A program made the position numbers and the translations under genes. From an uncultured Candidatus Saccharibacteria bacterium (GTDB lineage Bacteria; Patescibacteriota; Andersenbacteria; UBA10190), in contig CAYJQW010000005.1 of the NCBI GenBank assembly GCA_964372635.1, positions 44 to 64,043 on the forward strand: a stretch of 64,000 nt of DNA, written 5' to 3'. Below the pieces are notes generated by a model that saw only the letters and a list, made by a program, of their open reading frames with translations, ran no database searches and was not told the DNA's origin. Below are positions 5,237-64,000 of this stretch, in pieces; the stretch's first letter is position 1, and each line of letters begins with the position of its first letter.

Positions 5237-5264
5237 TTTACTAACTGTAAGTGACCTTCGTGTC

Positions 5265-8453: not shown

Positions 8454-8510
8454 CTGATATTAGATAAAACTTGTCAGGAAACTTTGGGCGTTGTAAACTG
8501 ATGCGTTACC

Positions 8511-9425: not shown

Positions 9426-9447
9426 TTTTAAGTAATTACCTGATCTC

Positions 9448-35004: not shown

Positions 35005-35012
35005 ATTTTCTT

Positions 35013-46246: not shown

Positions 46247-46276
46247 CCCTTGGTATTAAATACCAGGGGATTTTAT
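46247..46276 (+). terminator. Intrinsic terminator (10 bp stem cccttggtat/ataccagggg, 3 nt loop, then ATTTTAT)
   Basis: Read directly from sequence. Lies between the small acidic gene (+) and the ychF 3' end (-). Confidence 0.5.
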
Positions 46277-47367: not shown

Positions 47368-47412
47368 TCATTATATGTAGCTCGACCGTCATCTTTCGGC
47401 AAGGGTGCAATG
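47357..47412 (+). repeat. Repeat copy A (degenerate): the real ychF start and upstream region
   Basis: cttttaaCATtcattatatgt...ctttcggcaag shares blocks with copies B and C. CAT at 47365-47367 is the ychF ATG on the minus strand. Confidence 0.55.
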
Positions 47413-47480
47413 GAAAATCAAGGCGCCTATATAAGCCAGTTTGCTAGTCAGTAGAAGTAAGAAAGAGATTAATTGTACTT

Positions 47481-47513
47481 GACCCCTTTTTGACCCCTTT
47501 TTGTCTTTTTGTC
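47481..47513 (+). repeat. Short tandem repeat gaccccttttt x2 plus gtcttttt gtc
   Basis: Direct reading of the sequence between repeat copies A and B. Confidence 0.6.
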
Positions 47514-47517
47514 ATAC

Positions 47518-47573
47518 AACTTTTAACATTTCTTATATGTCGCGGCGGTGTCGTTTCGGCAAGAATCGGAACA
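47518..47573 (+). repeat. Repeat copy B (left boundary of the GC-rich block), ~54 nt identical to copy C
   Basis: acttttaacatttcttatatgtcgcggcggtgtcgtttcggcaagaatcg. On the minus strand it retains ATGTTAAAAG, which mimics the ychF start codons. Confidence 0.65.
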
Positions 47574-47599
47574 ACATCGACCAATGGGAGCAGTAACTA

Positions 47600-49063
47600 C
47601 TATTGCCGTCGAACTATGTTGGCTTCATTCTTCGTAAATATGTTGCGGCTGGCGTGACTGAAGCTGGGGTTGACGTGGTCTAGAAATATCGCTGCTTTCT
47701 GGCTCCTGACGATCGTGTTGGCCGTAAGTGTGTTATTGCGAACGTCGTCTTTTAGGTAAATGCCATAGCGGTTTCCGACCAACTTGTTGTCAAGCACTAT
47801 GTTTTTGTCCGTTCGAAGGTATACGCCACCACGACTGTTAGTGATTGTGTTGTTTCTGATAATCGTGTTTCCCGCTCCTTGATAGAGATACACACCGTAG
47901 TCGCGATTGTTTGCCAGTGTGTTGTATTCGACGAGGTTGCTGGTGGCAGGATCGTTAATGCGGATGCCGTTATTGTTGTCGTACGCCGTATTGTGGCGGA
48001 TGACGTTGTTGCTAGAACGATACACAGCGATTCCGTCCTGGTTGTTGTAAACCGTGTTGTCTTCTAACAAGTTATTGTGTGAGTCTTCATGAATTATAAT
48101 CCCGTGGCCTTGGTTATCATAGGAGATGTTGCCGCGGAAGGTATTACCGCGGCAGCGTTCGGAGACAATGATTCCGTGCTTGCCGTTGTGGTGAGCGCGG
48201 TTGCCGACGATCAGAGCGTAGTTAGAATCATTGTACGGATCGAGACCATAAATCACGTTGCGGTATAGCTCATTGTTAAGCCAGTTCATACCTACAGCTC
48301 CGAAAGTGTAGGTGCCGTAGTAGTTATGATGGAAGGAGCTTCCTCGTACCTCACCGGTCAAGAGGTGTACGCCCGACGTATCATCCGCTCGCCAACTAAC
48401 GCCGTAGTGGCCGCTTATGTTCGGCTGCGAGGCGTATCCAAGATAGGCAAGCTCGGCATCAATAATGTCCATGCGGGCATCCTGACCGGCACGGACATAG
48501 GCGCGGCCATCCTGCCAGCGGTAGTCATAGTCGCGCGCCTGCACGTCCCACGAGGTCAGACGCACACCTTCAATATAGATGCGACCTTGAACGACACGAA
48601 TCCAGACAAATTTTTCCGGTGTGCTGGTTAGCTTGAGGTCGGTTACCTCGGTAACTGTTAGTTCCAGCAGCACATCGCGATTAATCAGCAGATTAGTTTT
48701 TAGCAGCCAACTTGTTAATCCCAGCTGCTGTACGTGGTCGGGGCCAAGTGCGCGGGACAGGTCGGACATAGTCACGCTCGTGCCGGGGCCGCTGACGCTG
48801 ATCCTATCTTTCTCCGGCTCGTAGACAATTGTCGGTTTAGCCGACTGGTTTGTGGTGGCACGCAACGCCGCATCAGTGATGTCGTAACGGTGCAGCGGCA
48901 CGGTGATAAGTTGGTCGGCTACAAATTGCTGCCTCTGATTAACCGCAGTGAGATCAGCCACAGTGGTGTGGTAGCGGCGAGCAATCAGCGACATTGTATC
49001 TCCGTTCTTCCAGACGTAGGGAGCATCCCAGGTCTCGGTTGTGCGGTAAGCAGGCGCGGTCAC
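47600..49063 (-). CDS. LysM + right-handed parallel beta-helix (PbH1 repeat; pectate-lyase/NosD/AlgG-like) protein, no signal peptide
   Basis: N-terminal LysM-like YVWKNGDTMSLIARRYHTTVADLTAVNQ...LITVPL. About 9 PbH1-type repeats (NNQDGIAVYRSSNNVIRHNTAYDNNNGIRIN...). Start overlaps the GT2 stop (ATGA). Confidence 0.65.
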   Translation of the reverse strand: MTAPAYRTTETWDAPYVWKNGDTMSLIARRYHTTVADLTAVNQRQQFVADQLITVPLHRYDITDAALRATTNQSAKPTIVYEPEKDRISVSGPGTSVTMSDLSRALGPDHVQQLGLTSWLLKTNLLINRDVLLELTVTEVTDLKLTSTPEKFVWIRVVQGRIYIEGVRLTSWDVQARDYDYRWQDGRAYVRAGQDARMDIIDAELAYLGYASQPNISGHYGVSWRADDTSGVHLLTGEVRGSSFHHNYYGTYTFGAVGMNWLNNELYRNVIYGLDPYNDSNYALIVGNRAHHNGKHGIIVSERCRGNTFRGNISYDNQGHGIIIHEDSHNNLLEDNTVYNNQDGIAVYRSSNNVIRHNTAYDNNNGIRINDPATSNLVEYNTLANNRDYGVYLYQGAGNTIIRNNTITNSRGGVYLRTDKNIVLDNKLVGNRYGIYLKDDVRNNTLTANTIVRSQKAAIFLDHVNPSFSHASRNIFTKNEANIVRRQ

Positions 49064-50433
49064 CTGGAAAGCGGCCAGGTGGTGGGTGGGTTACTAAGTG
49101 CGGATTCGTCAATACTCTCTGCTCTGACGGTTGTCGGGGTTAACTGGCTTGTCCCGTAAACCACCCCACTTAAAACCACAATAATTACGGCGGTTGCTCC
49201 ATAGGCTGCTATTAACTTGAGCCAGGTGTGTTGTGGCAAGCGGTTTTTATCCCAGCGAGTGATCCAACCTTGCTGGTTCATAGTAATAAGTGCGTATATG
49301 CGCACGAAAGCTGTAATAAAGGTGTACAAGATGTAGATTGGCAAAAGGACGATGTCTGCCGGCCGACGCCGCAGGTGCGACCAGAGGCGAATTAGGCGGC
49401 TGGCGTGCCACCACACCAGCACAATTCCGGCAGCCAACCAATATTCGCGCAGCAGTGCAGCGGCAAAATAAAGTGGTGAGAACAACAGCACAAACGGCTG
49501 AATCATTTGATCGACAATAAAGAACGCCAACGCAGGATGTCGCCAAACCCAGCCCTCCCAAAGGGCCCGCAGGTTGGCTCGCCAACTGTTACGAGTCCAG
49601 CGCAATCGCTGCTTCAGTAGTATTCCCAGTCGGTCAGCGCCCGGCGTAAAGACGCGGGCAGTTTGCTGAAACGCCAGGTGCCAGCCTTTTGCGGCAACCA
49701 GATAGGTGAGACGTTTATCTTCGCCGCTTATGACAGGTTTGCCCCAAAAAGTTTCGTTGACCATATCCGGCAGCACAGGCAAGAGCGTCTGGCGGCGGTA
49801 CAAGGCGGTGCGCCCTGACAAGCAAGTCAGTACGGTGCCGCTTCCGGCTAGATACGGCATTTCATCGGAGTAGCGCAGATCGAGTTGAATATCGAATAGG
49901 GCCTGGGCGACTGTCGTGACCGCTAGCACATTTTGCCGAGTGGCCACGCCACCCACACGGGGGTCACTAAAAGCTGGCAGCGCTTCGGTTAACATAGTTG
50001 GATCCCACAACGTGTCGCTGTCAACTAGAGCAATTATATCGCCGGTAGCCGCCCGCGCGCCGTCGGCCAAAGCCTGTCGCTTACCGGGCGTGGTGGTCAC
50101 AATCAGCTTCGCGGCCGGGTATTGGGCCGCAAACTTACGAAACACCTGCTGGCAGGATTTATCCGTGTGGTCAATGACGGCAATAATCTCGAGTGGGTCG
50201 TTCGCCTGCCAGGAATATAGAGCTTGCTGAAATAATGTAGGTTCTTCGTTATACACTGGCGTGACGACAGACACCGAGCCGCGATACACACCGCGCATCG
50301 GTCGGTAGCGCCGGCCCATCACTTTCTTATATAACCAGACACTCCAACGCCAGATGCCGACAACACTGAGAGGAAAATAAAACGCGATCAGACCTGGGAT
50401 GTCGTGCACTTCAATTGAAAAAAAGTCAGTCAC
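49060..50433 (-). CDS. Processive family-2 glycosyltransferase (hyaluronan/cellobiuronan/cellulose-synthase-like, QxxRW)
   Basis: N-terminal TM helices; GT-A domain with VVTPVYNEEP, DSDT (DxD) and QRLRW; C-terminal TM bundle. Size (457 aa) and topology resemble HasA/Cps3S-type membrane synthases. Confidence 0.75.
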   Translation of the reverse strand: MTDFFSIEVHDIPGLIAFYFPLSVVGIWRWSVWLYKKVMGRRYRPMRGVYRGSVSVVTPVYNEEPTLFQQALYSWQANDPLEIIAVIDHTDKSCQQVFRKFAAQYPAAKLIVTTTPGKRQALADGARAATGDIIALVDSDTLWDPTMLTEALPAFSDPRVGGVATRQNVLAVTTVAQALFDIQLDLRYSDEMPYLAGSGTVLTCLSGRTALYRRQTLLPVLPDMVNETFWGKPVISGEDKRLTYLVAAKGWHLAFQQTARVFTPGADRLGILLKQRLRWTRNSWRANLRALWEGWVWRHPALAFFIVDQMIQPFVLLFSPLYFAAALLREYWLAAGIVLVWWHASRLIRLWSHLRRRPADIVLLPIYILYTFITAFVRIYALITMNQQGWITRWDKNRLPQHTWLKLIAAYGATAVIIVVLSGVVYGTSQLTPTTVRAESIDESALSNPPTTWPLSR

Positions 50434-51400
50434 GGTTGGCCACCAGATTGACTGATAACTCTGCGTCCACCAACTGGGTATTGTGGACTCTAAGTTCTGG
50501 TTGTGGAGCCGGTGAGGCCGCCGTATGTATAGAGTCGTTCAGCGCAATAGTGGCCGCCAGGACGGGCATGTCATAACCATTCTTAGTCGCCCAGGCATAG
50601 AACGCCTGCGTGTCCTTAGGTAAGCACATGCCGTCGAAAGCTCCAAAGTCGCGTGTCCCATAGGTCGCATTCCACATCCCTTCACAGCTAAGAGCGGTTA
50701 GCTTGAAGATGGTCTCATGATCCAGGCCCCGCACCTGACAAATCCGTCGCATTTCATTAAAGAAACTAATCTTAGTGGCGTTGAACAAATTGTGAGCATA
50801 TTTTTGCAGTTCGGCTTCCTGAATAGAAACTCGAACCAAAGGACAGTCGAATCCTTGGTAGAGATCAGCCAACAAGTCGCCCGAGCGTTGGTCAAATTGA
50901 CCGATCACGATCAGCCACGGTTGTCGAAAATCTTCCGCAGCGCTCTTTTCACGTAAGTACTCGGGATTCATGCACAAGCCAAAATCACGTCCTCTAAGTT
51001 TGCCCGACTCTCGCTCAAGAATCGGTGCGATCACTGTCTCAGTAGTTCCGGGCGGGACTGTGCTACGCACGGTTACTAAGTGATAACGATTCATAGTTTT
51101 CAAGCGCTGCCCCAGTTCATATGCCGCCGCTTCGATATGCGCCAGGCTAATGCTCCCCTCGGCCGTGGGTGTGGAAACGGTAAGAAGAGAAATATCTGAG
51201 TCGTCACCAGCTTTTCTTAGCGACTGCGGCAAGTAGCAGCGCAAACCTCGCTGCTGGAGGTGTGTAACCGTGGCTGCATTCACGTCAACGAACTGAACAG
51301 TGTAGCCTTGTCCTAGTAATCCCAGACCAGTGGCCTGGCCGACGACACCAGCACCGATAACGGAGATAGTTAGTTTTTTTGTCTGGTGTTTTCTATGCAT
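50426..51400 (-). CDS. UDP-glucose/GDP-mannose dehydrogenase family protein (short, 324 aa)
   Basis: N-terminal Rossmann ISVIGAGVVGQATGLGL and catalytic-Cys block GAFDGMCLPKD (compare GGSCFPKD). Overlaps the GT2 start. Confidence 0.65.
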   Translation of the reverse strand: MHRKHQTKKLTISVIGAGVVGQATGLGLLGQGYTVQFVDVNAATVTHLQQRGLRCYLPQSLRKAGDDSDISLLTVSTPTAEGSISLAHIEAAAYELGQRLKTMNRYHLVTVRSTVPPGTTETVIAPILERESGKLRGRDFGLCMNPEYLREKSAAEDFRQPWLIVIGQFDQRSGDLLADLYQGFDCPLVRVSIQEAELQKYAHNLFNATKISFFNEMRRICQVRGLDHETIFKLTALSCEGMWNATYGTRDFGAFDGMCLPKDTQAFYAWATKNGYDMPVLAATIALNDSIHTAASPAPQPELRVHNTQLVDAELSVNLVANRD

Positions 51401-51478
51401 AACAACCGACTAATTTAACATGGCGGCTTTAAAACCTCAAGTATTACTCTTAAATGGATAGGTGTTGCAGGTACTACC

Positions 51479-53440
51479 CTATTGCCTCAAGGCTTCAATT
51501 GGCTCCAACTTAGCCGCCCGCAGCGCTGGATATGTGCCTGATATCAGACCGATCAGGCCACCTAAAAGAGGGGCGAGCAATGGAATACTTGGATCTAAAA
51601 CAGGTGTCCAGACTTGGTAGGCTCCTACAGCTACTACTACCAGAGTGCCTAGACTGGCGCCAATGATACCTCCGATGATTCCCATGGAAGTACTTTCGAT
51701 GAAAAACTGTGTCGCAATATGACGGCGCGTGGCACCGAGCGAGCGGCGCAGTCCGATTTCACCGATGCGCTCAATCACAGATATTAGAGTTATATTTCCG
51801 ATACCAATTGCTCCCACAACAAGGGATAAGCCGCCTAGTAAGAGCATTAGTATATTTAATTCACTTTGGATGGCCTCGCGCACGCGTTTGGGCTCAGGTG
51901 GCGAGACAATCTTTAATGTTTTTGGATCATCCGGTCGTAGAGCCAGCGGAGCTTGGCGTGAAATCAACGTTGCGGCACCAATTCTGGTTTCAATGATTAC
52001 CGAGCTAGGACTTGATAACCCAAAATCACGCCTTGCTGTTTCTTCGGGAATAATGACTGAACCGAGTAGGTCTGGCTGTCGACCGACACCGTCCAAGATT
52101 CCCATCACGAGGTATATCTTATCCCCAATGGCGATCGCTGGCAGATGCTCAACACCGACAATATTAAGCCGCTCGGCTGCCGAAGGACCCAGCACGGCAA
52201 CACGATCTCCTCGCTGGGAGTGACCCTTATCCGGCAAACGACCATTTTTCAGGTTGGCTCGTACAGTCGCAAACAATTCAGGCGACGCAGCTTGAACAGC
52301 CAATTTGAAATCCGTCTGACGGCGCGGGTCAGTAATAGTTGATGCACTAACCAGGGCGTCTTGGCTAGCTACCGGGCTCAATGTTCCGGCGGTAACTACG
52401 CCATTAAGGCGAAGCAGACGCTGAGCAGCATCCCAAGGGATGACTTTATTTTGTTGGCTAGCCAGACTGGCGCGAGGCGTCACCATGATTTCAGTGGCAG
52501 CTAGTTCATTGAAAGTTCCAATAATACGATTACTTGCTGTGCGTGATACTCCAACGGTGGCGACCAAAGCAGCGATACCAATCACTACCCCCAGGCTAGT
52601 CAGTGCGGTGCGAGTTGGATTGGCGAACAGACCGGCGATTGCTTCACTTACGAGGTCATGAATAGTTATGCCTGAGCGTGAAACCACATTCGCCGACCGG
52701 CTAGTACCGGCGGAGTTCATGGTGGTCAGCATAGTTTTTTCGCTCGACTGCTCAATTGATTTGCCATCTATGATTTCGAGACGTCGGCCAGCGCGCGCGG
52801 CCACATCTTCATCATGAGTAACGACCACTATTGTTAGCCCCTGTTGATGCAAGTTCTCCAGCAGCTCAAGGAGGTTGGCGGCTGACTTCGAATCTAAGTT
52901 ACCAGTTGGTTCGTCACACAATAACAGATCCGGAGTACCAATCAAGGCGCGGGCAATGGCAACCCGTTGTTTTTGTCCACCTGATAATTTGGTTGTCAGA
53001 AAATCAGCCCGGTCACCTAGGCCGACTTGATTAATAGCGGCTAAAGCCCGTTCACGCCGGCCGTGGTGCGATTGCTTTCGGTACACTTCTGCTAGCATCA
53101 CATTTTCGACTACTGATTTGTGTGGCAATAGGTGAAACGATTGAAAGACGAAGCCAATGTGTCGACTGCGCAGTCCAGCCCGCTCGACTTCGGTTAACTT
53201 CGTGGTATCGATGCCGCGGAAAAAATATTGACCGGCTGTTGGCCGATCTAAGCAGCCAATAATATTTAAGAGTGTTGATTTACCCGAGCCTGATGGGCCA
53301 GTGATTGCTAACCACTCGCCTGTCTCAAGCCGAAAATCAACCCCGGCCAGGGCTTGGACAGGCGCGTCAGTACCGAACTGACGACCAACGTTACTGAGCA
53401 AAAGTATCGTTTCAACGGGTGAACTTTTTGATGTTTTCAT
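51479..53440 (-). CDS. MacB-type ABC transporter (fused ATPase + FtsX-like permease)
   Basis: Walker A GPSGSGKST; signature LSGGQKQRVAIARAL; Walker B LLLCDEPTGNLD; then a large extracytoplasmic domain and 4 TM helices (FtsX fold). Confidence 0.8.
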   Translation of the reverse strand: MKTSKSSPVETILLLSNVGRQFGTDAPVQALAGVDFRLETGEWLAITGPSGSGKSTLLNIIGCLDRPTAGQYFFRGIDTTKLTEVERAGLRSRHIGFVFQSFHLLPHKSVVENVMLAEVYRKQSHHGRRERALAAINQVGLGDRADFLTTKLSGGQKQRVAIARALIGTPDLLLCDEPTGNLDSKSAANLLELLENLHQQGLTIVVVTHDEDVAARAGRRLEIIDGKSIEQSSEKTMLTTMNSAGTSRSANVVSRSGITIHDLVSEAIAGLFANPTRTALTSLGVVIGIAALVATVGVSRTASNRIIGTFNELAATEIMVTPRASLASQQNKVIPWDAAQRLLRLNGVVTAGTLSPVASQDALVSASTITDPRRQTDFKLAVQAASPELFATVRANLKNGRLPDKGHSQRGDRVAVLGPSAAERLNIVGVEHLPAIAIGDKIYLVMGILDGVGRQPDLLGSVIIPEETARRDFGLSSPSSVIIETRIGAATLISRQAPLALRPDDPKTLKIVSPPEPKRVREAIQSELNILMLLLGGLSLVVGAIGIGNITLISVIERIGEIGLRRSLGATRRHIATQFFIESTSMGIIGGIIGASLGTLVVVAVGAYQVWTPVLDPSIPLLAPLLGGLIGLISGTYPALRAAKLEPIEALRQ

Positions 53441-54990
53441 TATTTAAAACCAATGACAATCAGCTGACTTGGTGTCAGCGTTCCGGTGACGGGAGTGACT
53501 TCCACAAAACCATTGGCCGACAAACCGGTTTTCACAGTGACATACTGTAGAGATCCATCTTCGTCTACTTGTACACGCGAGGTACCATCAGCGGCCAGGG
53601 AGACAGCACTGATAGGTACGGCGATCACTTCATCCTTAGTTGATTCAATCGGAATGGTGAGTCGTAGTGATGTGCCTTCCAGAGTGGTGGGAGTTGTATC
53701 AACTGTTACTTCAAAATAGACGTGGAAGCCATCCACTCCGTTGGTGCCGGGCGCAGCGGCGACTTTAGTCACGATACCGGTTGCTTCTATGCCTAAGTCC
53801 GCCTCGTCTATCTTCACTTTCATGTCGGGTTTTACCAGCGCGGCTTCGGCAAGCGGCAGAGAAGCATCAATCACGACTTGATTATTAGTGACTGTTAACA
53901 CTGGTCCTTTCGCAACTGCGCCAACGGCAACGTCAACTTGTTTGATGCGCGCTGGCAGCGAGTTTACAAACATGACTTCATTGGCAGGTACTTGAATACC
54001 CGTTTTGCTTTGGACACGACTTAGATCGGACGCAATGCGTGCGGCTAACGCCTTGGCCACTACGGCTTCACGTTGTCCAATCTGCTGCGCATTCAGGGCC
54101 GTCTGTACGGCAATAGTGCCTTCTTGCCGTAATGCTTTAGCAGAGGCTTCAGCAGCCTTAAAATCGGCGGTGGCTTTAGCTTTTTCTTCATTAGTTGCAC
54201 TTAAGTCCCCAGTGACTTTAAGGTACGTCGCCTTTTTTGCTTCAATGTCAGCAGTCGCGGCGATATTAGTGCCGGCTGCTTTATCACGGGTAGCCGCAAC
54301 TAACTTAGGCCCAGCGGCCAGTGTGGCGATGAACTGATCTTTCTCTGCCACGGCCAACTCCTCGATTAGGGTGTGAATTTCCTTGAGTTGCTCTGGAGTT
54401 GGCTCAAATGGTTGCCAATTGGATCTGGCGTACCATGCAGCTACAGCGGCGGCGGTTTGGGCATCGTACCGCCCATCGATGATTCCGGGATAAAAACCCA
54501 GTCGTTTAAGGCCCTGTTCTAATTGCATTATATCTTCACCAATAGTACCTGGAGTCATATCCCGAAACGCGGGGATGGCACCTTCCATGACAAACACCGG
54601 ACGGTCACCAATAGTGAAAGCGACCTGACCTTCTTTAAATTGCGCATTGGGCAAGGGAAGGGTAGTGATCAGTGTCTCGAGCGGTTTGGCGGCCGAGTGA
54701 GGCAGCGATATTGTTTGTGGCAGACCGAAGCGAGCCGTGCCGCGAGTCACAATATCAGAGGTAAGCACGCGTTTCTCGATCGGAACCAGAATCGGCGAGG
54801 CTAGTGGCGGGGCCACTTCGGCAGCGATTTCGGCTGGCGATTTAATACGTGATCCAACTAGCCAACTACCCAGCGCCAACACAACAACTGCTCCGAGAAT
54901 TAGACTGATGAGCTTTGACCTTTTTTGCGTGTGTGCCAGTTCAGCGATAGGTTTCGGTATCAGACGAAACAATGTCAGTTTTATATTCAT
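53440..54990 (-). CDS. HlyD/MacA-family periplasmic adaptor (membrane fusion protein) with inserted peptidoglycan-binding domain
   Basis: N-terminal TM; PG_binding_1-like LEQGLKRLGFYPGIIDGRYDAQTAAAVAAWY; long Ala/Lys-rich coiled-coil hairpin; C-terminal beta-barrel/MP domains. Start overlaps the MacB gene. Confidence 0.7.
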   Translation of the reverse strand: MNIKLTLFRLIPKPIAELAHTQKRSKLISLILGAVVVLALGSWLVGSRIKSPAEIAAEVAPPLASPILVPIEKRVLTSDIVTRGTARFGLPQTISLPHSAAKPLETLITTLPLPNAQFKEGQVAFTIGDRPVFVMEGAIPAFRDMTPGTIGEDIMQLEQGLKRLGFYPGIIDGRYDAQTAAAVAAWYARSNWQPFEPTPEQLKEIHTLIEELAVAEKDQFIATLAAGPKLVAATRDKAAGTNIAATADIEAKKATYLKVTGDLSATNEEKAKATADFKAAEASAKALRQEGTIAVQTALNAQQIGQREAVVAKALAARIASDLSRVQSKTGIQVPANEVMFVNSLPARIKQVDVAVGAVAKGPVLTVTNNQVVIDASLPLAEAALVKPDMKVKIDEADLGIEATGIVTKVAAAPGTNGVDGFHVYFEVTVDTTPTTLEGTSLRLTIPIESTKDEVIAVPISAVSLAADGTSRVQVDEDGSLQYVTVKTGLSANGFVEVTPVTGTLTPSQLIVIGFK

Positions 54991-55023
54991 AGCCCCGATG
55001 TACCCCTTTTACTCCACCTGTCT

Positions 55024-55995
55024 TTAGTTTTGTGGTGCGCCGTAAAGTTCAGTTTCAACCTGAACTACAACCGGCTCAATGAATTCCTCCGCGCAGTCAA
55101 AATCGGCGACGGCGATCGCTCGTTCCTCGCCTTGCAGCTCAGTTAACACCTTTTGGATATCAGGAGCTAAAGTGCTTGGATCAGCCTCACCAGTAATACT
55201 AGTCAGGCGATCTTGAAGGTCTTTTTCAATTTCTTCGGGGTTATTGTAGTTAAAACCTGCTTTCCGGATGCAACTCGCCCACTTGGCAGTGGCAGCGATT
55301 ACTCGCGAATCTTGCGCAATCAGCACATCGCCTGGGTTAGTGTAAGCGCCGCCTAACTGATCGCGGTTAAACACTTGTTCGATGGCGGTGCGTGTACAAC
55401 CACCCACTTGCGAGAAGTCTTCAGCTTCAAGAGAGACGGCAAACGTGGCAGTCGTGTTTTCACCAAAGAGGGAACGGTTGTAAGCTACCTGGTTACTGGC
55501 CGACAAGTTAATAAACAGTTGTACATTCTGGCTACCTAAGCCAATAGTGGCAGCGTGGTCAGCACCAGAAAGCTGGGGGGCAGTACCAAGCTTAGTATTC
55601 TGCGTGGAAATACCGTAGCCGAATTGGGAACGGAATTCATCATCAGTTAATCCGGCAATTTTTTTATCGGCGTCCATGGATTTTCGCACGGTGAGATAAT
55701 CGGCCGGGATATATTGAAAACCAGTGGTCTTCATACAACTGGCAATACCTTGTTCAACTGCCTCGATATTCTTCACCAACTCGGCTTTGGTCAAACCAAA
55801 TTCTTCGGCTCCTGGCAATATAGCTGCAGGGGATTGTGAGATAGTGGCGGGCGATGGTTTGCGGCTAGGCCAAAGATTATCGTTAGGACTGACAATATAG
55901 GAAATACCAGCGATGGTGGCGATCACGAGCACAGTCAGTAATAACGGTTTCTTTTTCATCTCTACACATCTAGCACAGACCATCTGACTAGTCAA
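55024..55995 (-). CDS. Exported hypothetical protein with two Cys-containing internal repeats (likely start at MKKKPLLL, near coordinate 55959)
   Basis: Signal/TM KKKPLLLTVLVIATIAGISYIV. Repeated blocks C.KTTGFQYIPAD and CIRKAGFNYNNPEE. First gene of the minus-strand operon. Confidence 0.4.
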   Translation of the reverse strand: MTSQMVCARCVEMKKKPLLLTVLVIATIAGISYIVSPNDNLWPSRKPSPATISQSPAAILPGAEEFGLTKAELVKNIEAVEQGIASCMKTTGFQYIPADYLTVRKSMDADKKIAGLTDDEFRSQFGYGISTQNTKLGTAPQLSGADHAATIGLGSQNVQLFINLSASNQVAYNRSLFGENTTATFAVSLEAEDFSQVGGCTRTAIEQVFNRDQLGGAYTNPGDVLIAQDSRVIAATAKWASCIRKAGFNYNNPEEIEKDLQDRLTSITGEADPSTLAPDIQKVLTELQGEERAIAVADFDCAEEFIEPVVVQVETELYGAPQN

Positions 55996-56041
55996 CGTAC
56001 AGAACTTGTGCTACTTTTGTCGATAAGGAGGGGTCCTTCAT

Positions 56042-56542
56042 GTGCATAGTTGTATGATGCGTATCTCCTTCTTCATTATTTCTATTACTCTAACCGCAGT
56101 TAGTCTGGCTGGGGTTTTTTTATATTACTTTCTACAGTTGCAGTCGGCGTCTTTGACAGATAGTTCCTTTATTCAGAGCGATACTAAATCAGCTCAGATT
56201 ATACCGATTAAAGATACTGAGCTAAATCATGTGGTGTTGACAGAGCGGGCGACACAGCGACTGGCCATTGCGACTGTTCCAGTTCAGGTTGCCACTTCAG
56301 CTCAGGCTAGACAGGAAAATGGCCGCACAATTATTCCGTATTCGGCAGTGATTTACGATCCGAACGGAGCTACCTGGACATACACGAATCCAGAAACTTT
56401 TGTGTATGTCAGGCATCCCATCACGATTGTCTATATTGAAGAAGACTTTGCTGTTCTCAGCAGCGGTCCACCATCTGATACGAGGGTGGTGACGGTCGGG
56501 GCGGCTGAACTGTTTGGAGCTGAGTTTGGTGTCGGCAAGTAA
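56042..56542 (+). CDS. Minimal membrane-fusion-protein-like adaptor (TM + beta-barrel/membrane-proximal domain only; no alpha-hairpin)
   Basis: N-terminal TM; C-terminal IIPYSAVIYDPNGATWTYTNPETFVYVRHPITIVYIEEDFAVLSSGPPSDTRVVTVGAAEL matches the MFP C-terminal pattern (VP..AV...G..VYV...V..G.VV.G). Immediately precedes two RND genes. Confidence 0.45.
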   Translation: MHSCMMRISFFIISITLTAVSLAGVFLYYFLQLQSASLTDSSFIQSDTKSAQIIPIKDTELNHVVLTERATQRLAIATVPVQVATSAQARQENGRTIIPYSAVIYDPNGATWTYTNPETFVYVRHPITIVYIEEDFAVLSSGPPSDTRVVTVGAAELFGAEFGVGK

Positions 56543-56554
56543 CGGATATACGTT

Positions 56555-59500
56555 GTGGCTATACCAGTGATCCGTCATATAGTTGAGACAAGTTTGCGGC
56601 TTCGGTTTCTGATGGTGGCGATTATTATTGTCTTGTTGCTAGTTGGCGTAAGTGAGTTTCCGGAAATACCAGTCGACGTGTGGCCTGAACTCAACCCGCC
56701 GTTAGTAGAAATTCAAACTGAAGCACTTGGGTTGGCTGCGGCTGAAGTGGAATCCTTAATCACCGTTCCGATGGAGGCGGATTTACTCAACGGTATTGCC
56801 TTCCTAGACCACATCACGTCGGAGTCGGTGGCTGGTTTATCGTCTATTCGCCTCATTTTCGAACCTGGGACTGATCCGATGATAGCCCGGCAATTAGTGG
56901 CTGAACGATTAACGCAAGCGTTTGCATTGCCCAACGTGTCAAAACCACCAATGATGCTGCAGCCTCTGTCGAGTACAAACCGGGTGATGATGATTGGTCT
57001 TTCTTCGCAGGATTTATCGTTAATTGATTTATCTGTGCTGGCGCGATGGAATATTAGGCCACGCTTAATGGGTGTTCCGGGAGTTGCAAACGTGGCAATT
57101 TGGGGTCAGCGGGAACAGCAGTTACAGGTACAGGTTGATCCAGAACGACTTTATCGGCAAGGCGTCACTCTCCAACAAATCATTGAAACTGCTGGCAATG
57201 CTCTGTGGGTATCGCCACTTAGTTTTTTGAATTCCTCGACACCTGGCACGGCTGGTTGGATAGATACACCCAATCAACGACTTGGTCTCCACCATGTCTT
57301 ACCCATTAAAGGGCCAGAGGACCTATCTAAGGTATCAGTCGCAGGTAGCAGTGGGCTGCGTTTGAGTGATGTGGCCACAGTAGTGGAAGATCATCAACCG
57401 CTAATTGGTGATGCGGGGTTAAGTGATCAGGCGGGTCTCCTGCTGGTCATTGAAAGGTTTCCTGAAGCTAACACATTGGAAGTAACCGATGATGTGGAAG
57501 AAGTACTCGACGCTCTACAACCTGGTCTTACTGGGGTCGAGATCGACACCATTTTCCGCCCGGCCAGTTATATCGAGCTAACGATCTATAATTTGGTTGT
57601 TGCTGCGCTGTTGGCTGGCGTGTTTATTGGGCTGGCGTTATTTACTTTTCTTGATGCGTGGCGCGTGGTGTTCATTGGCGTTCTGTCGATTCTTGGAGTA
57701 CTACTCATCGCTGGGCTGATTCTGTTACTACACGGGACGAGTATCAATGCGATGATGATTGTAGGAATTGTAATTGCCATTACTATCGTCATCGATGATG
57801 TAGTGCTTGACAGCGAAACAACGGTGCGGCGACTACGTGAATCAGCTGATATGAATCGTGATCAGTCGCTGCAGTCAGTGATTGTATCTGCCACGCTGCA
57901 GCTGCGTCGTCCGTTAAGCTATGCGACAATAATCATGTTACTAATTGTGTTGCCGGCCTTCTTCTTGCCTAATCCCGTCGGCGCATTTTTCCGGCCACTA
58001 GCGTATGCATATATTTACGTGTTGCTTGCAGCTGTAGTAGTGACACTAGTTATCACGCCGATGTTAAGTCTGATACTATTGTCAACTTCGCGGCGTACCC
58101 ATGACGCACCGGCGATCATCATACTGCTCTCACAACGTTACCGAAATTTACTCACGCGTTGGCTTGGTGTCCCTCGCCGCGTGACTAGCGCGGTTGTGAT
58201 CACTGTACTTGGAGGTCTATTACTACTGCCACTTATTACCGTGTCTTTGCTGCCCGTGTTTAAGCAGACGGATCTACTAGTGCGGCTGAAAGGTATACCT
58301 GGCACGTCGCAACAGGAGATGAACCGGATGGCAGTTTCGGTCAAGCAGGAGGTGCGATCGATACCGGGCATTCGGAATGTCGGATTTCAGGTCGGGCGAG
58401 CCATAACCGGGGATCAAGTCGTTGGTATCAATTCAGGTGAGCTGTGGATAAGCCTTTCTCCTACGGCGGTGTATGAGGCAACAGTGGATAGAGTTCGAAA
58501 AGTGGTTGATGGCTACCTTGGTTTTGCGAGCGCGGTACAGACCTATCAACCAGACAAAGCCGAACAAATATTATCTCGCGCTGAGCAAGACCTGGTTGTG
58601 CGCGTGTACGGTCATGAGTTAGATGAACTCCAGCGTCAGGCCGAGATAGTACAGCAGCGCCTTGCAGAGATTGAAGGTATCAGAGATGTACATGCACAAC
58701 TGTCGGACCTGGAGCCGCAAGTGGAAATAGAGGTGGATTTAGCGGCGGCCGAACGCTATCAAATTAAACCTGGTGATGTCCGTCGGCAGGCGAGTACGTT
58801 GTTGTCTGGTTTGCAAGTGGGTAATCTATTTCAAGATCAGAAAGTCTTCGATGTTGTCGTCTGGGGTGTACCTGAATTACGCCAGAATTTGACTAAACTA
58901 CAGGAACTTCAGATTGACACGCCGGGCGGCCAGGTGCGCTTGAGGGAATTAGCCGATGTGCGCATTGTGCCCTCACCCACCATTATTATACGTGACGCTG
59001 TCTCGCGTTATATTGATGTTGTTGGGAGCGTGCATGGTCGGGATGCACGAGCGGTGAAACGTAATGTCACCAAGGTTCTCTCAAGTCTAGTGTTTCCCTT
59101 AGAGTACCATGCAGAAGTACTGGATGAATCGGCTATACAGCAGCGAGCCGAGTGGCGCACCTTAAGCGTGGTGGGTGCGGTCTTAGTGGCGTGTTTACTT
59201 TTGCTCCAGGCGGCTTTTCAAAATTGGAGGGTAGCCGTACTCTTTTTTATCAGTGTGCCGTTAGCACTTGTTGGCGGTCTGGCGGCAGCGATACTTGGTG
59301 GCGGTACGCTTACAATCGGTTCAGTAGGTGGATTCTTGGCGGTGTTAGCAATTGTGGTTAGAAGTGGTGTGGTGCTGCTCGATCACTGGCAACAACTCGA
59401 ACAGCAGGCAGGCATGCCTTTTGGCTTAGCCCTTGTCTTGCGTGGTAGCCAAGAGCGACTCACACCAATTCTCATGTCTGCCAGTGCGATCGGTCTGGCG

Positions 59501-59647
59501 ATGCTACCACTTGTGCTGTTTGGTACTATTCCTGGGTACGAACTACTGCATTCACTGGCGATTGTTACTATTGGTGGCTTAATTACCTCGACTCTCTTTC
59601 TTCTCTTTCTTCTGCCAGCGTTGTACTTGCGGTTTGGGAAGTCTTGA
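56555..59647 (+). CDS. RND efflux transporter, HME (CzcA/CusA-like) type, paralog 1
   Basis: 1030 aa, 12-TM RND architecture. N-terminal block IFEPGTDPMIARQLVAERL resembles CzcA IFKDGTD..ARQLV. TM4 has IVIDDVVLDSE. Confidence 0.8.
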   Translation: MAIPVIRHIVETSLRLRFLMVAIIIVLLLVGVSEFPEIPVDVWPELNPPLVEIQTEALGLAAAEVESLITVPMEADLLNGIAFLDHITSESVAGLSSIRLIFEPGTDPMIARQLVAERLTQAFALPNVSKPPMMLQPLSSTNRVMMIGLSSQDLSLIDLSVLARWNIRPRLMGVPGVANVAIWGQREQQLQVQVDPERLYRQGVTLQQIIETAGNALWVSPLSFLNSSTPGTAGWIDTPNQRLGLHHVLPIKGPEDLSKVSVAGSSGLRLSDVATVVEDHQPLIGDAGLSDQAGLLLVIERFPEANTLEVTDDVEEVLDALQPGLTGVEIDTIFRPASYIELTIYNLVVAALLAGVFIGLALFTFLDAWRVVFIGVLSILGVLLIAGLILLLHGTSINAMMIVGIVIAITIVIDDVVLDSETTVRRLRESADMNRDQSLQSVIVSATLQLRRPLSYATIIMLLIVLPAFFLPNPVGAFFRPLAYAYIYVLLAAVVVTLVITPMLSLILLSTSRRTHDAPAIIILLSQRYRNLLTRWLGVPRRVTSAVVITVLGGLLLLPLITVSLLPVFKQTDLLVRLKGIPGTSQQEMNRMAVSVKQEVRSIPGIRNVGFQVGRAITGDQVVGINSGELWISLSPTAVYEATVDRVRKVVDGYLGFASAVQTYQPDKAEQILSRAEQDLVVRVYGHELDELQRQAEIVQQRLAEIEGIRDVHAQLSDLEPQVEIEVDLAAAERYQIKPGDVRRQASTLLSGLQVGNLFQDQKVFDVVVWGVPELRQNLTKLQELQIDTPGGQVRLRELADVRIVPSPTIIIRDAVSRYIDVVGSVHGRDARAVKRNVTKVLSSLVFPLEYHAEVLDESAIQQRAEWRTLSVVGAVLVACLLLLQAAFQNWRVAVLFFISVPLALVGGLAAAILGGGTLTIGSVGGFLAVLAIVVRSGVVLLDHWQQLEQQAGMPFGLALVLRGSQERLTPILMSASAIGLAMLPLVLFGTIPGYELLHSLAIVTIGGLITSTLFLLFLLPALYLRFGKS

Positions 59648-59656
59648 ACCTAAGTT

Positions 59657-62600
59657 ATGATTCGTCGGAAGATTATTGACAGTACTAATGTCACATCGAC
59701 CTTGTTCTTGCAGTGGGTCATTCGCACAAGCCTACAGTTTCGCTACCTCGTCATATTTATAGTGGTGGCGCTTATTGTCTTTGGCATCGATGCGATTCGC
59801 CAGATGCCAGTTGATGTGTTTCCAGAGTTTGCGCCACCGCGGGTCGAGATTCAGACTCCCAGCCTGGGCCTTTCCGCGACTGAGGTGGAAGCACTGGTAA
59901 CAACGCCATTGGAGGAGATATTTAATGGGGTGCCGCAGCTGGATATCATGCGTTCCAAATCAGTGGAACAATTATCGTCCATAGTGCTTATCTTTGAACC
60001 CGGCACTGAATTGATGAAAGCTCGGCAGTTGGTAGCCGAGCGGTTAGCTATTGCGATACCTATCTTGCCAACCTGGGCAGCCCCTCCGGTGATGATGCCG
60101 CCGCTGTCATCAACGGCACGGACGATGAAAATAGGTATTTCTTCGAACGACCGCAGCGTGATCGAACTGTCAATGATCACATATTGGAAGATTAGGGAAC
60201 GATTGTTGCGCGTACCTGGCGTGGCCAACTTAGTGATTTGGGGCGAGCAGATTCAAATGCCGCAGGTGCAAGTTGATCCGGAGCGTCTTCAAGCAGAGGG
60301 TGTGTCGATTGATGAAGTTTTGCAGGTTACTTCAGATACGCTGGACTCTGGGATGATCCAATACTCTGACGGATCAAGAATAGGCGCGGGCGGATTTTTA
60401 GTGACGCCCAACCAACAGTTGGCGATTCGTCACGTGCTGCCTTTTCTTGAACCAAGTGATTTGGCGCGTATAGTAATAAATGACCGCACCAAAAGTGACG
60501 GCACACCGCTACGATTGGGTGACGTAGCGAATTTAGTGGAGGGTACATGGCCCATGATTGGTGATGCAGTAGTTAACGATGGTCCTGGACTTCTGCTGAT
60601 TGTTGAAAAGTTTCCCTGGGGTAACACGCTTGAGGTGACTCGAGGGGTCGAAGCAGCGATCGATGAAATGCGACCTGGATTACCAGGTATCGACATTGAC
60701 ACCACCATTTTCCGGCCGGCAACGTTTGTGCAAGCCGCGCTCAATAATTTGGTAACCTCTTTACTGATTGGGGCAGGCCTGGCGGTAGTGGTGCTTCTCC
60801 TTTTTCTATGGGACTGGCGGATCGCGCTGATTTCCGCCGCGATTATTCCAGTGACGGCGGTGCTTACTTTGCTGGTACTGTCTTGGTTGGGAACAACACT
60901 TAATGTGATGGTATTAGCGGGGTTGGTGATCGCCATTGGCGCGGTGATTGACGATGCCATTGTTGATGTCGAAAACATTGTGCGGCGACTCCGCCAATAT
61001 CGCCGGCAAGGAAGCACTAAAGGAACGGCTGAGATTATCCGCTTAGCGTCAGTCGAAGTACGCAGTGCCATTATCAATGCGTCGCTGATTGAGATGATCG
61101 CGCTTATTCCAGTCTTCTTTTTACCTGGGCTATCGGGCGCTTTTTTTCGACCGCTGGCCCAAGCTTATGTAGTGGCGACTATAATATCCCCGTTGGTTGC
61201 GCTCACGGTTACACCAGCGCTGATTTTGATTTTGTTGGAGAATGCGCCAATTCGTGAGCGCCTGTCTCCAATTATTCCGTATCTTCAGCGGAGCTATGAC
61301 AGGTTGCTGGCGAGAATTATTAAAGTACCGCGGCTGGCGTATGCGGCCTGCGGTGTGCTGTTGGCATCTGGTATTGTGGTATGGCCACATTTAGGGCAGG
61401 AGTTACTACCCTCGTTTAAAGAACGAGACTTTCTGATGCATTGGGTGGCTAAGCCTGGCACATCGCATCCGGAAATGGTGCGAATCTCCACTCGGGCTTG
61501 TCAGGAACTACGCACTATACCGGGGGTTCGTAATTGTGGTTCCCACATTGGGCAAGCGTTACTAATGGATGAGGTCTACGGCATTTATTTTGCTGAGAAT
61601 TGGGTGAGTGTTGATCCCGCGGTTGACTATGACGTGACACTCGCCAAAATCCAGGAGATGGTTAATGGTTATCCCGGGCTGGTACGTGATGTACAGACCT
61701 ATCTAAAAGAACGCATTAGAGAAGTCCTGACCGGGTCAAGTCATCCGATTGTCGTTCGCATCTATGGCCAGGACATGGGAGTCTTGCGAGGGTTAGCTCA
61801 AGAAGTGCAGGAGGAACTTGCTAAAATTAGTGGCATTGTTGATGCACAAGCGGAGCTTTTAGTTGATATTCCCCAGATACAGATTGAAGTCGATTTAACG
61901 GCAGCCGAGAAATTCGGTCTTAAACCAGGTGATGTTCGCCGACAGGCGGCCTATATGGTGGCGGGTGAAGAAGCGGGCGATATTCACACCGCTAATCGTA
62001 CTTATGATGTACAGGTATGGAGTACACCAGCCTCACGACACAGCCTGAGCAGTATAAAAAACATGCTAATAAATACGCCCACAGGACAAACCATCCGTTT
62101 GACGGATGTTGCCGATGTCCGTATCGCACCAGCGCCTAATGCTATCAATCACGAAGGTCTCTCCAGAAGACTTAACGTTGAAGCTGATGTGGTAGGAAGA
62201 GATCTGGGCTCAGTGATTGACGATGTCGAAGATGCTCTCGATACAGTTCAATTTCCCCTGGGCTACTATCCGACATTGCTTGGCGAATACGCCGAGCGAC
62301 AAGCGGCGCAAGAGCGCATTGTGATTATGGGTCTCCTTGCGGTGCTCGTGATTTTCTGCCTCTTACGGGTATCGCTTGGGAGTTGGAAAGTGGCAACTAT
62401 GGCTTTTTTAAGCTTGCCAATGGCGCTGTCGGGAGGCATCCTAGCGGCGCTTTTGTTTGGCGGCGTATTGACGCTCGGTTCTTTGGTTGGTCTTCTCACC
62501 ATTTTAGGCATAGCAGCGCGTAATAGCATTATGCTCATTAGTCACTTTCAACATCTTGAAACAGTAGAAGGCATACCTTTTGGATCGGCTTTGGTTCAAC

Positions 62601-62842
62601 AGGGTGCACGAGAACGACTGGTACCGATTCTCATGACCGTGTTAACGGCCGGACTGGCATTGGTGCCGCTCGTGATTGCTGGCAATATTCCTGGGCATGA
62701 AATTGAACATCCGATGGCCATTGTTATACTCGGTGGCCTACTAACCTCGACGCTGGCCAACTTGTTTGTAGTGCCCGTGTTATACCTAAGGTTTTTCATC
62801 CCTTCGACAGGCTCACTTTTCGACCAGCGTAAAGTGCCATGA
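59657..62842 (+). CDS. RND efflux transporter, HME (CzcA/CusA-like) type, paralog 2
   Basis: 1061 aa; IFEPGTELMKARQLVAERL; TM4 AVIDDAIVDVENIVRRL. In tandem with paralog 1, separated by 9 nt. Confidence 0.8.
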   Translation: MIRRKIIDSTNVTSTLFLQWVIRTSLQFRYLVIFIVVALIVFGIDAIRQMPVDVFPEFAPPRVEIQTPSLGLSATEVEALVTTPLEEIFNGVPQLDIMRSKSVEQLSSIVLIFEPGTELMKARQLVAERLAIAIPILPTWAAPPVMMPPLSSTARTMKIGISSNDRSVIELSMITYWKIRERLLRVPGVANLVIWGEQIQMPQVQVDPERLQAEGVSIDEVLQVTSDTLDSGMIQYSDGSRIGAGGFLVTPNQQLAIRHVLPFLEPSDLARIVINDRTKSDGTPLRLGDVANLVEGTWPMIGDAVVNDGPGLLLIVEKFPWGNTLEVTRGVEAAIDEMRPGLPGIDIDTTIFRPATFVQAALNNLVTSLLIGAGLAVVVLLLFLWDWRIALISAAIIPVTAVLTLLVLSWLGTTLNVMVLAGLVIAIGAVIDDAIVDVENIVRRLRQYRRQGSTKGTAEIIRLASVEVRSAIINASLIEMIALIPVFFLPGLSGAFFRPLAQAYVVATIISPLVALTVTPALILILLENAPIRERLSPIIPYLQRSYDRLLARIIKVPRLAYAACGVLLASGIVVWPHLGQELLPSFKERDFLMHWVAKPGTSHPEMVRISTRACQELRTIPGVRNCGSHIGQALLMDEVYGIYFAENWVSVDPAVDYDVTLAKIQEMVNGYPGLVRDVQTYLKERIREVLTGSSHPIVVRIYGQDMGVLRGLAQEVQEELAKISGIVDAQAELLVDIPQIQIEVDLTAAEKFGLKPGDVRRQAAYMVAGEEAGDIHTANRTYDVQVWSTPASRHSLSSIKNMLINTPTGQTIRLTDVADVRIAPAPNAINHEGLSRRLNVEADVVGRDLGSVIDDVEDALDTVQFPLGYYPTLLGEYAERQAAQERIVIMGLLAVLVIFCLLRVSLGSWKVATMAFLSLPMALSGGILAALLFGGVLTLGSLVGLLTILGIAARNSIMLISHFQHLETVEGIPFGSALVQQGARERLVPILMTVLTAGLALVPLVIAGNIPGHEIEHPMAIVILGGLLTSTLANLFVVPVLYLRFFIPSTGSLFDQRKVP

Positions 62843-62917
62843 GCTTGTCGAGGAACAGGGTTAATCTTAAGTGCGTCGAAGAAGATTGACACCTCATCTG
62901 GCCAGCAGTATCGTGAC

Positions 62918-63811
62918 ATGATGTTTCCACTACGACATTTTCATATCTTATTAGGGGCAGTTGTAATCTCATTGGTAATTTTCGGTTTTGTTCGTCGGTC
63001 CGGCTCGATGCCGGTGGTGACTGACGGTAATGAGTTAACCGATGCGCAACCTATACGGTTCGAGGAAATTGACCCGAGTAATTTTGACCGATCAACGACG
63101 ATCGACAACCCGTGGTGGTCGCTAAAGCCTGGGACGAGATGGGTGTACGAAGGGTATAGTCTAGCGGATGGCGAGCGTGTTCGCCATATGGTAGTGGATA
63201 CCGTAACCGATCTTACCAAGGATATTAATGGCATACGTGCGGTCGTGAGTCTGGAGGAAGATTACAGTGATGGCAAATTAATCGAGAGAGAAATTGCCTT
63301 TCACGCACAGGACAAAAATGGCAATGTGTGGCACTTAGGTCAGCTGCGAGAAGAGTATGAGGATACGCATTTCAGTGGGGCTCAAGCCTGGTTGGTTGGC
63401 CATCTCACTGACGCCAAAGCGGGGATCAGGATGTTAGCCACGCCAGTTCAGGGTGCCAGCTATTCTCAGGGTTATGCGCCGCCGCCTTTTCACTGGACCG
63501 ATCGTAGCTATGTCTCTCAACTGGGCCAGCAGACGCGAGTCGCTGCGGGTAGCTACAATGACGTGATGATCATCGAAGAGTGGGACGAGGAAACTCCACC
63601 CGGGGTCTTTCAGACTAAATACTACGCCCGCGGGGTGGGCTTAGTTCGGGTTGGCTTTAGAGGTGATGATCCTGAGCAAGAGGAATTAGAGTTGGTTAAG
63701 GTTGAGCAGTTGGGACCAGCATTTTTAGCTGAAGCTCGTGAAGAGGCGTTAAAAATTGAGGAGCGGGCCTATGTGTACGGCCACACGTCGCCTGCAGAGC
63801 AGATCAAGTGA
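62918..63811 (+). CDS. Signal-anchored hypothetical protein (297 aa), last gene of the island
   Basis: N-terminal TM (ILLGAVVISLVIFGFV), then a soluble domain with no motif I recognise. Confidence 0.4.
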   Translation: MMFPLRHFHILLGAVVISLVIFGFVRRSGSMPVVTDGNELTDAQPIRFEEIDPSNFDRSTTIDNPWWSLKPGTRWVYEGYSLADGERVRHMVVDTVTDLTKDINGIRAVVSLEEDYSDGKLIEREIAFHAQDKNGNVWHLGQLREEYEDTHFSGAQAWLVGHLTDAKAGIRMLATPVQGASYSQGYAPPPFHWTDRSYVSQLGQQTRVAAGSYNDVMIIEEWDEETPPGVFQTKYYARGVGLVRVGFRGDDPEQEELELVKVEQLGPAFLAEAREEALKIEERAYVYGHTSPAEQIK

Positions 63812-63873
63812 CGTGAAACTTTTGCCTGTGCGCAGGCGAAAGGATTAGTTTGGATATTGGTATGCAAATACCA

Positions 63874-63933
63874 AACTTTAACATTTCTTATATGTCGCGG
63901 CGGTGTCGTTTCGGCAAGAATCGAACTAACATC
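63874..63933 (+). repeat. Repeat copy C (right boundary of the GC-rich block)
   Basis: aactttaacatttcttatatgtcgcggcggtgtcgtttcggcaagaatcg is identical to copy B over ~54 nt. Two small hairpins precede it (gcctgtgcgcaggc; ttggtatgcaaataccaa). Confidence 0.65.
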
Positions 63934-64000
63934 ATAGTGTTTGTCTTTCATGTTTTGTGAAAAAATGATGGCTACCCAAATAAGCTCCTACATCTTTCGT

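Follow-up and report, generated by a model that had tools for sequence, protein, structure and literature searches.

A candidate 16-kb cargo island among relic copies of the ychF start in a Patescibacteria contig

Islands that encode DusA-specific tyrosine integrases insert in the 5' end of dusA and leave a displaced remnant of that 5' end behind (PMC4482086). Cis-mobilizable elements (CIMEs) are decayed elements that keep their attL and attR sites without mobility genes, and accretion has been described at such attachment (att) sites (PMC5704250). In Dehalococcoides, the islands at ssrA are marked by multiple tandem direct-repeat relics, and some of those without an integration module have been proposed to be CIMEs (PMC3146451). 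The gene ychF itself serves as attachment site for pipolins with large serine recombinases (PMC11551731), and a ychF-associated site with 26-bp att sites is used by the pneumococcal satellite prophage PhiBM6001.4 (PMC10383233). The locus considered here lies directly upstream of ychF in a 64,000-nt stretch of DNA (hereafter, the window) from contig CAYJQW010000005.1 of assembly GCA_964372635.1, which belongs to an uncultured bacterium from the candidate phyla radiation (CPR)/Patescibacteria. It comprises a 16.3-kb block of transport and polysaccharide genes set within an array of repeats that derive from the ychF 5' end, and it is read here, with moderate confidence, as a laterally acquired cargo island in the chromosome of this organism. 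Bacteria of the CPR have tiny genomes, and little was found in the literature that describes genomic islands in them.

The repeat copies are lettered A to E, and the exact run common to copies B and C is called the core (Table 1). A first-pass annotation of this DNA had described B and C as identical over ~54 nt. Both are real, in direct orientation and located where it had placed them, but the longest exact run is 47 nt (47522-47568 = 63877-63923), and 57 of 62 nt match when the comparison is extended. A 44-nt core has two matches in the window, against 0.00 expected from 100 shuffles. The third copy, A, spans the start codon of ychF at 47367 on the minus strand, and the alignment of all five copies holds 34 invariant columns, which cover the ychF upstream region and ATGTTAAAAG. 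Read in the sense of ychF, the sequence common to all copies is CTTGCCGAAA...ACAT.TAA..AATGTTAAA, which is the region just upstream of ychF followed by its first codons, ATG TTA AAA. Because this paralogy ties the repeats to the ychF 5' region, the target site can be identified and, as in classical islands, the flanking direct repeats derive from it. This origin had been overlooked, as had the existence of at least five copies of the ychF 5' end (A, B and C in the window, D and E just beyond it), a larger duplication of ~220 nt, and the end of the 64,080-nt source contig, which falls between C and D and at most 80 nt beyond the window.

In the sense of ychF, the order of the array is E-spacer-D-180 nt-C-block-B-spacer-A::ychF. 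Copies B and C do bracket the block, as had been proposed, but they form only part of the array A-B...C-D-E, in which the ~220-nt duplication is the real flanking repeat. The segment B-spacer-A (window 47349-47568) is 95.9% identical by BLAST over 220 nt to E-spacer-D (positions 2048-2267 of a second contig, L001), with 153 nt perfectly identical; the mismatches gather around the ATG region, and the similarity fades ~30 nt (about +30) into the ychF reading frame. On these sequence grounds, the larger duplication is a better candidate for the pair of junctions than B and C. Compared with the N-terminus of YchF, the relic translations read MLKVGIGTLPSQ for D, MLKFGI... for C, and MLKVV* for both B and E. 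Copy D holds the upstream region and ~30 nt of ychF-like coding sequence (MLKVGIGTLPSQ) before it diverges, and is a displaced ychF 5' end in decay, of the kind that dusA islands leave. Additionally, the A-B spacer (window 47471-47488) and the C-D segment (L001 1955-1972) each contain one copy of a short repeat, AATTGTACTTGACCCCTT, which suggests that the segments between copies are degenerate versions of one unit.

The right flank of copy C had been regarded as unseen. This holds for the source contig, but ~340 nt beyond the window (272 nt in one count) are visible in L001 (CAZNEF010000011.1, 2,272 nt), a contig from a separate assembly that is 100% identical to window 62069-64000 and in which C, the AT-rich segment, D, spacer and E follow the right end of the block. 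An integrase or a tRNA gene had been envisaged on that side; neither is present in the ~340 nt, which hold further repeat copies instead. No longer contig reaching past copy E was found in genome, metagenome or viral collections, with the genome collection giving only the 2.3-kb contig L001/L003, and the motif had no match in JGI metagenomes or viral contigs. Exact matches to the proteins led only to fragmented Logan contigs, which are interrupted at the repeats.

The composition of the block is distinct from that of the backbone, as in classical islands, with the caveat that transporter genes show a similar offset in the collinear contig L091, which is introduced below. The GC content is 50.6% in the block (47579-63871; standard deviation 2.1) vs. 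43.8% in the backbone (1-47516; 1-kb windows, standard deviation 2.2, maximum 49.2). The left arm is indeed the richest part, but the 58-72% given for it in the first-pass annotation was an overstatement, since the richest 200-nt window of the block has 59%. The GC content at third codon positions (GC3) is 0.506 ± 0.059 in 10 open reading frames (ORFs) of the block and 0.384 ± 0.029 in 29 of the backbone (Mann-Whitney p = 7e-6). Values peak in the three polysaccharide genes, at 0.53-0.62 vs. a backbone maximum of 0.48, and the transporter genes range from 0.44 to 0.53 (~0.47). The tetranucleotide distance to the backbone profile is roughly doubled, from ~0.011-0.015 in most 4-kb windows of the backbone to 0.021-0.027 inside the block. 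GC rises within ~100 nt of copy B and has dropped to 0.40 again just past the final gene of the block, and the steps in all three measures coincide with B and C on both sides.

The backbone to the left of the block consists of core genes, coding for FtsK, a RodZ-like helix-turn-helix protein, RecA, an RNHCP protein, SSB, S6 and YchF; further left are UvrB, RuvA, TruB, a VirD4-like ATPase and many ORFs without a Pfam match. In a search of 5.8 billion proteins, the closest relatives of this YchF are 74-76% identical, and the named ones belong to Candidatus Andersenbacteria. The order ychF-rpsF-ssb-rpsR-recA-rodZ-like-ftsK-rpoC is kept in L006/L011 (JGI) and in L010 (GCA_040900375.1); L011 is not an independent relative, because it belongs to the same lineage as L006. 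Upstream of ychF, other genomes hold a DinG-like helicase gene (L006), a methyltransferase gene and a PurD-like gene (L013), or unannotated ORFs (L014), and the block was not found at ychF in L006/L011, L013 or L014, which keep the downstream synteny and have YchF proteins 66-75% identical. The block is hence absent from the same locus in related, albeit distant, genomes. Since these relatives keep the backbone but differ upstream, the 5' end of ychF is a synteny breakpoint and the block is lineage-specific. Neither of the two observations that would have refuted the first-pass annotation, a uniform composition or the presence of this block in all relatives, was made.

Some other observations concern this backbone. 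The metagenome-assembled genome (MAG) of the same species that contains L001/L003 is labelled uncultured Candidatus Saccharibacteria, whereas Candidatus Andersenbacteria is the name borne by the syntenic MAG and by the nearest named relatives of YchF, which makes the lineage label within the CPR a tentative one. At 13740-16226, the backbone encodes a VirD4/TraG-like coupling ATPase of 828 aa (T4SS-DNA_transf, TrwB_AAD_bind, TraG-D_C), and no other conjugation genes were recognised nearby. The 142-kb contig L010 (JBBDZC010000008.1), from an Andersenbacteria MAG with the same synteny, ends 36 nt upstream of ychF; as a sign of a shared hotspot this is suggestive only, with no motif similarity visible, and it may be a coincidence or another variable junction.

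As had been described, the block encodes only accessory functions, comprising polysaccharide genes, a MacAB-like exporter and CzcA-like pumps of the resistance-nodulation-division (RND) type (Pfam and NCBIfam; Table 1). The 297-aa ORF adjoining copy C encodes a membrane-anchored protein with a weak DUF3108-like match. The reported absence of recombinases, transposases and relaxases was confirmed for all ORFs of the block with Pfam and NCBIfam. A hidden integrase was also considered: the three unannotated ORFs were rescanned at E<=10 against both collections and the translation of the 297-aa ORF was inspected, and none was recognised. In contrast to classical islands, there is no integrase or other mobility gene at either end and, in contrast to dusA islands, no cognate tyrosine integrase beside the junction. 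With regard to CIMEs, repeats that are candidate att sites are present and mobility genes are absent. A comparison with plasmids and phages, which the first-pass annotation had recommended, gave no megablast match for the block among 72,556 plasmids and 50,697 phages, and a more distant mode covered only 4-7% of it through generic RND genes. A plasmid or phage origin is thus not indicated by DNA or gene-content similarity, and the repeat motif is absent from viral contigs. Because the block contains no recombination, replication or transfer genes, it is non-autonomous today.

Table 1. Positions of the repeat copies, the target gene and the parts of the block (window numbering unless stated)
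Feature	Coordinates	Strand	Remarks
ychF (redox-regulated ATPase YchF), target gene	46273..47367	-	Pfam MMR_HSR1 and YchF-GTPase_C; start codon inside copy A; 100% match to P0121
Copy A	47358..47403	-	36 nt upstream of ychF and first 10 coding nt (CTTGCCGAAA...CATATAATGA-ATGTTAAAAG); working ychF 5' region
Spacer between A and B	47404..47519	-	100% identical to the D-E spacer beyond the window (alignment)
Copy B, left bracketing repeat	47517..47578	+	Exact core 47522-47568; in ychF sense, 5'-end paralogue with 5-codon relic ORF MLKVV*
Polysaccharide arm	47600..51400	-	Beta-helix/LysM protein (AlgG-like match), processive GT2 synthase (NodC/PgaC-like matches), UDP-glucose/GDP-mannose dehydrogenase-like protein
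Beta-helix gene	47600-49063		First block gene after copy B
Exporter region	51479..55995	-	MacB-type ABC exporter (ATPase, MacB_PCD and FtsX), 516-aa PG_binding_1 protein, 323-aa protein without family match
RND region	56042..63811	+	166-aa protein (weak RND adaptor match), two AcrB/CzcA-family RND permeases, 297-aa protein
RND permeases	56555-59647 and 59657-62842	+	AcrB/CzcA family; the second is RND2
Two terminator-like hairpins	63819..63877	+	After last block gene, abutting copy C; fold z=-3.6; terminator-like site 63819-63842
Copy C, right bracketing repeat	63872..63933	+	Exact core 63877-63923; relic start MLKFGI... in ychF sense; also in L001 and at the end of L005
AT-rich segment, start	63934..64000	.	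~180 nt in all, leading to copies D and E outside the window
D-spacer-E	L001 2048-2272 (~64116-64340 in window numbering)		Outside the window

The closest named relatives of the cargo belong to another phylum. RND2 has 8,000 matches, the best of which are 76-81% identical, and among the best 120 of them all named matches but one are from Chloroflexota (Anaerolineae, Caldilineaceae, Anaerolineales and Promineifilum; 72-77%). For the 297-aa protein, 1,996 homologues are known; those with a name come from Anaerolineae and Thermomicrobiales, and one homologue is encoded on a 4.3-Mb chromosome beside PG_binding and MacB genes. On the 4.3-Mb chromosome L009 (ERZ25039603 contig_372), an IS110-family transposase gene (5427-6926) lies ~3 kb from the 286aa-290aa-PG_binding-MacB cluster, and this version of the module is without RND pumps.

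The transporter module is also found, collinear, on two further contigs: L091 (GCA_964359735.1; 58-61% GC) and L008 (SRR22387924; ~60% GC). In L091, it is followed directly by genes for proteins of 190, 375, 996 and 306 aa, which match window 3188-3886, 4100-5236, 5388-8453 and 8511-9425, respectively, in the same order and orientation and with 36-45% identity. In L008, it is followed by a homologue of the first gene of this cluster and then by the start of an Asp-rich protein that is similar by eye. In the window, the cluster (3188-9425) encodes secreted or surface proteins of 232 aa, 378 aa (Asp-rich), 1021 aa and 304 aa and is followed by an S8 subtilase gene (9448-11226); the Asp-rich protein is built on 270-nt tandem repeats (ND.D.D...TGDNEQNENT). 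The corresponding positions are 10962-17806 in L091 and 11027-12023 in L008.

The reading of the block as a laterally acquired cargo island involves the following steps. The block would have entered when the ychF 5' region of the chromosome recombined with a copy of the same region borne by an element, an event expected to leave the common sequence once on either side. Beside ychF, this copy (B-spacer-A) would keep the gene intact, whereas the far copy (E-spacer-D) would carry the displaced and decaying start. Copy C, as well as the likeness of B, C and E to A and D, may be left over from previous events at this site. The recombinase could have acted in trans or have been lost, leaving a CIME-like remnant; alternatively, a RecA-dependent single crossover of the Campbell type across the ~220 nt of homology may have sufficed.

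Several observations weigh against this account. No recombinase was found in the scanned ORFs of the 64 kb (two large ORFs at 31717-38957 were left unscanned) or in the ~340 nt beyond, and neither an excised form nor an empty site of the same species was observed; the nearest unoccupied locus is not a true empty site, because identity between the YchF proteins is only 75%. The position of the module beside homologues of window 3188-9425 in L091 and L008 is left unexplained by the account; here, the two loci lie at opposite ends of the contig, ~40 kb apart. The GC3 excess of the module over the surface cluster is ~+0.06 in L091 and +0.08 here, and in view of this similar offset, part of the GC excess is intrinsic to the transporter genes and GC alone is weak evidence there. 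Moreover, the block is not a recent import, because the GC3 of these genes is ~0.47 here vs. ~0.64 in L091, far from that of a fresh import out of a donor with 60% GC. Finally, every available assembly breaks in the repeat cluster, and the join from A through the spacer and B to the block rests on one contig. The perfect identity of spacer and core over 153-155 nt presumably exceeds the k-mers of short-read assemblers (the record name of L001 suggests k=141), so that the pairing A-spacer-core to block and D-spacer-core to AACTA cannot be distinguished from the alternative pairing.

This last point leads to the alternative that survives best, which is unlikely but carries some weight. According to it, the block is not, or not only, located upstream of ychF; it would form a 16.8-kb circle (block-C-180 nt-D-spacer-core) next to an unoccupied chromosome (ychF-A-spacer-core-AACTA...), or lie elsewhere, with the contig misjoined at the repeat. 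The source contig does stop inside the repeat cluster. Among the Logan contigs of ERR3478686, L002 begins 16 nt upstream of ychF and L005 ends exactly where core C does, and L001 extends only 5 nt past core E. The final k-mers of L001 (spacer-core-AACTA) fit the context of either D or A and have exactly the sequence of a recombinant, B x C or B x E, and joining both ends of the source contig would restore the order of module and surface cluster seen in L091 and L008. Since the two resolutions differ by exactly one recombination between repeats, the integrated form and a circle with an empty site may coexist. On the other hand, cores derived from a CPR ychF start flank the block on both sides, 22-60 nt from its terminal genes, and the linkage of its right end to D-spacer-E recurs in a second assembly, which together make a chimera of two organisms unlikely. 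Furthermore, the circle would hold no replication or recombination genes, a 64-kb circle that has rpoBC, recA and ftsK yet lacks any tRNA would not be plausible as a replicon, and there is no trace of the repeat at the left end of the contig.

Somewhat more doubtful is the proposal that the transporter module is an old resident of the present lineage, also common to the organisms of L091 and L008, and was moved beside ychF by rearrangement between dispersed ychF-promoter-like repeats, and that its GC content is intrinsic. The contiguous and collinear arrangement of the module and the homologues of window genes 3188-9858 in both contigs would be expected from such a history, as would the similar GC3 offset over the surface cluster in L091 and here and the distance of the transporter GC3 (0.44-0.53) from that of a donor with 60% GC. 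In addition, an L091 protein is also encoded on contig L092, whose record name contains '01um', possibly a 0.1-µm filter fraction, which would hint at ultra-small cells. The relative divergence of the two clusters, however, points in the other direction. The 297-aa family is equidistant among the window, L008 and L091 (73, 70 and 72%), whereas the adjacent surface protein is 59% identical between L008 and L091 and only 30-36% identical to that of the window, so that the module is closer than vertical descent predicts; as calibrated from these sequences, the rates favour transfer. An old residence is also at odds with the Chloroflexota affinity of the named top matches of RND2 and the 297-aa protein, among which no CPR sequence occurs, including the homologue on a 4.3-Mb chromosome, with the GC3 of the polysaccharide arm, which lies above the backbone maximum, and with the CPR relatives of conserved synteny that are without the block near ychF.

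The position of the repeat at a gene start raises the question of a regulatory role. Copy A reads TTGCCG-17-TACATA-6-ATG, with TTGACT-17-TACAGT-6-ATG at the same position in the relative L006; together they suggest that a promoter lies directly against a leaderless ychF start. Because a strict sigma-70 consensus scan of the window calls no promoter in the motif, this role is proposed from position only, and the motif was not upheld as a sigma-70 promoter. Most backbone ORFs are without a Shine-Dalgarno-like sequence in the 20 nt before their start. At ychF, an AT-rich stretch containing TATAAT abuts the ATG, which, with the arrangement in L006, suggests leaderless expression. The repeat was also considered as an RNA gene, a reading that found no support: it contains no tRNA or tmRNA, has no significant fold, and in the Rfam scan gave nothing at gathering or E<=1 thresholds except two small RNA matches at chance level. 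No tRNA, tmRNA or Rfam-recognised RNA is present in the 64-kb window, despite its recA, ftsK and ribosomal protein genes; unlike islands inserted beside a tRNA or tmRNA gene, the block has the 5' end of a protein-coding gene as its target. That the repeats are functional regulatory duplicates, such as tandem ychF promoters or leaders that flank the block by chance and have no role in recombination, is very improbable: the motif does cover the region directly 5' of ychF, with the promoter-like arrangement at the equivalent place in L006 and copy A and with B upstream of A in the same orientation, but copy C faces a convergent gene at its 3' end, no gene follows D or E, the promoter and RNA scans and the fold are negative, and the copies hold decaying ychF codons that regulation would not need.

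If the reading as a laterally acquired island is correct, a 16-kb block with Chloroflexota affinity, comprising two RND pumps, a MacB exporter and a polysaccharide synthase, represents a sizeable lateral gain affecting the cell envelope, and its cargo could hint at the organisms this bacterium lives with. The main draw of the feature lies in the combination of a CPR host, an apparently cross-phylum cargo and a relic array at ychF, and the array of ychF-start relics would be a concrete recombination hotspot that can be tested by PCR. Because the repeat cluster breaks every short-read assembly examined, such islands tend to be lost from MAGs or mis-binned. Competence machinery has been reported in CPR bacteria. 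A more speculative extension, to which a low probability is given, is that the ychF 5' region is a reusable landing pad, where DNA carrying a ~220-nt copy of the region is taken up and integrates by RecA single crossover without an integrase, each event displacing the old start into the relic array; an ultra-small bacterium might so have gained 16 kb of envelope and efflux genes from neighbours resembling Chloroflexota, which may be its hosts.

The feature holds up, and the site it targets can now be explained. Due to the lack of an integrase, it is filed as an island or CIME-like remnant and not as an integrative element; the island itself is fairly ordinary and decayed, and it is the host that is unusual. 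Like the dusA islands, it sits at the 5' end of a housekeeping gene, with the working 5' end beside the island, a remnant on the far side and imperfect direct repeats as flanks. Unlike them, it has no integrase next to the junction and, instead of 21-bp semiconserved att sites, has ~220 nt duplicated (153 nt of them perfectly) as well as additional copies inside. With CIMEs, it shares candidate attL- and attR-like direct repeats, the lack of integration and transfer genes, and an array of copies at one target gene. However, CIMEs sit beside a cognate integrative and conjugative or integrative and mobilizable element whose integrase mobilises them, whereas no such partner is present in the visible sequence (64 kb and ~340 nt).

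Similarly, in the ssrA islands of Dehalococcoides, several repeats of the target-gene end pile up to one side of an essential, single-copy gene and mark the limits of islands that interrupt synteny. Those islands use the 3' end of the tmRNA gene, 20-bp repeats and the serine recombinase DsiB, while the locus described here involves the 5' end of a protein-coding gene and longer repeats, with no recombinase found. Pipolins and PhiBM6001.4 differ in carrying recombinases and pipolin or phage cores, in place of which this block holds only transport and polysaccharide cargo and has no similarity to the phage and plasmid collections. In all of them, nevertheless, the integration site is ychF or the intergenic region just upstream of it, so that the use of this gene as an attachment site was already known from other elements.

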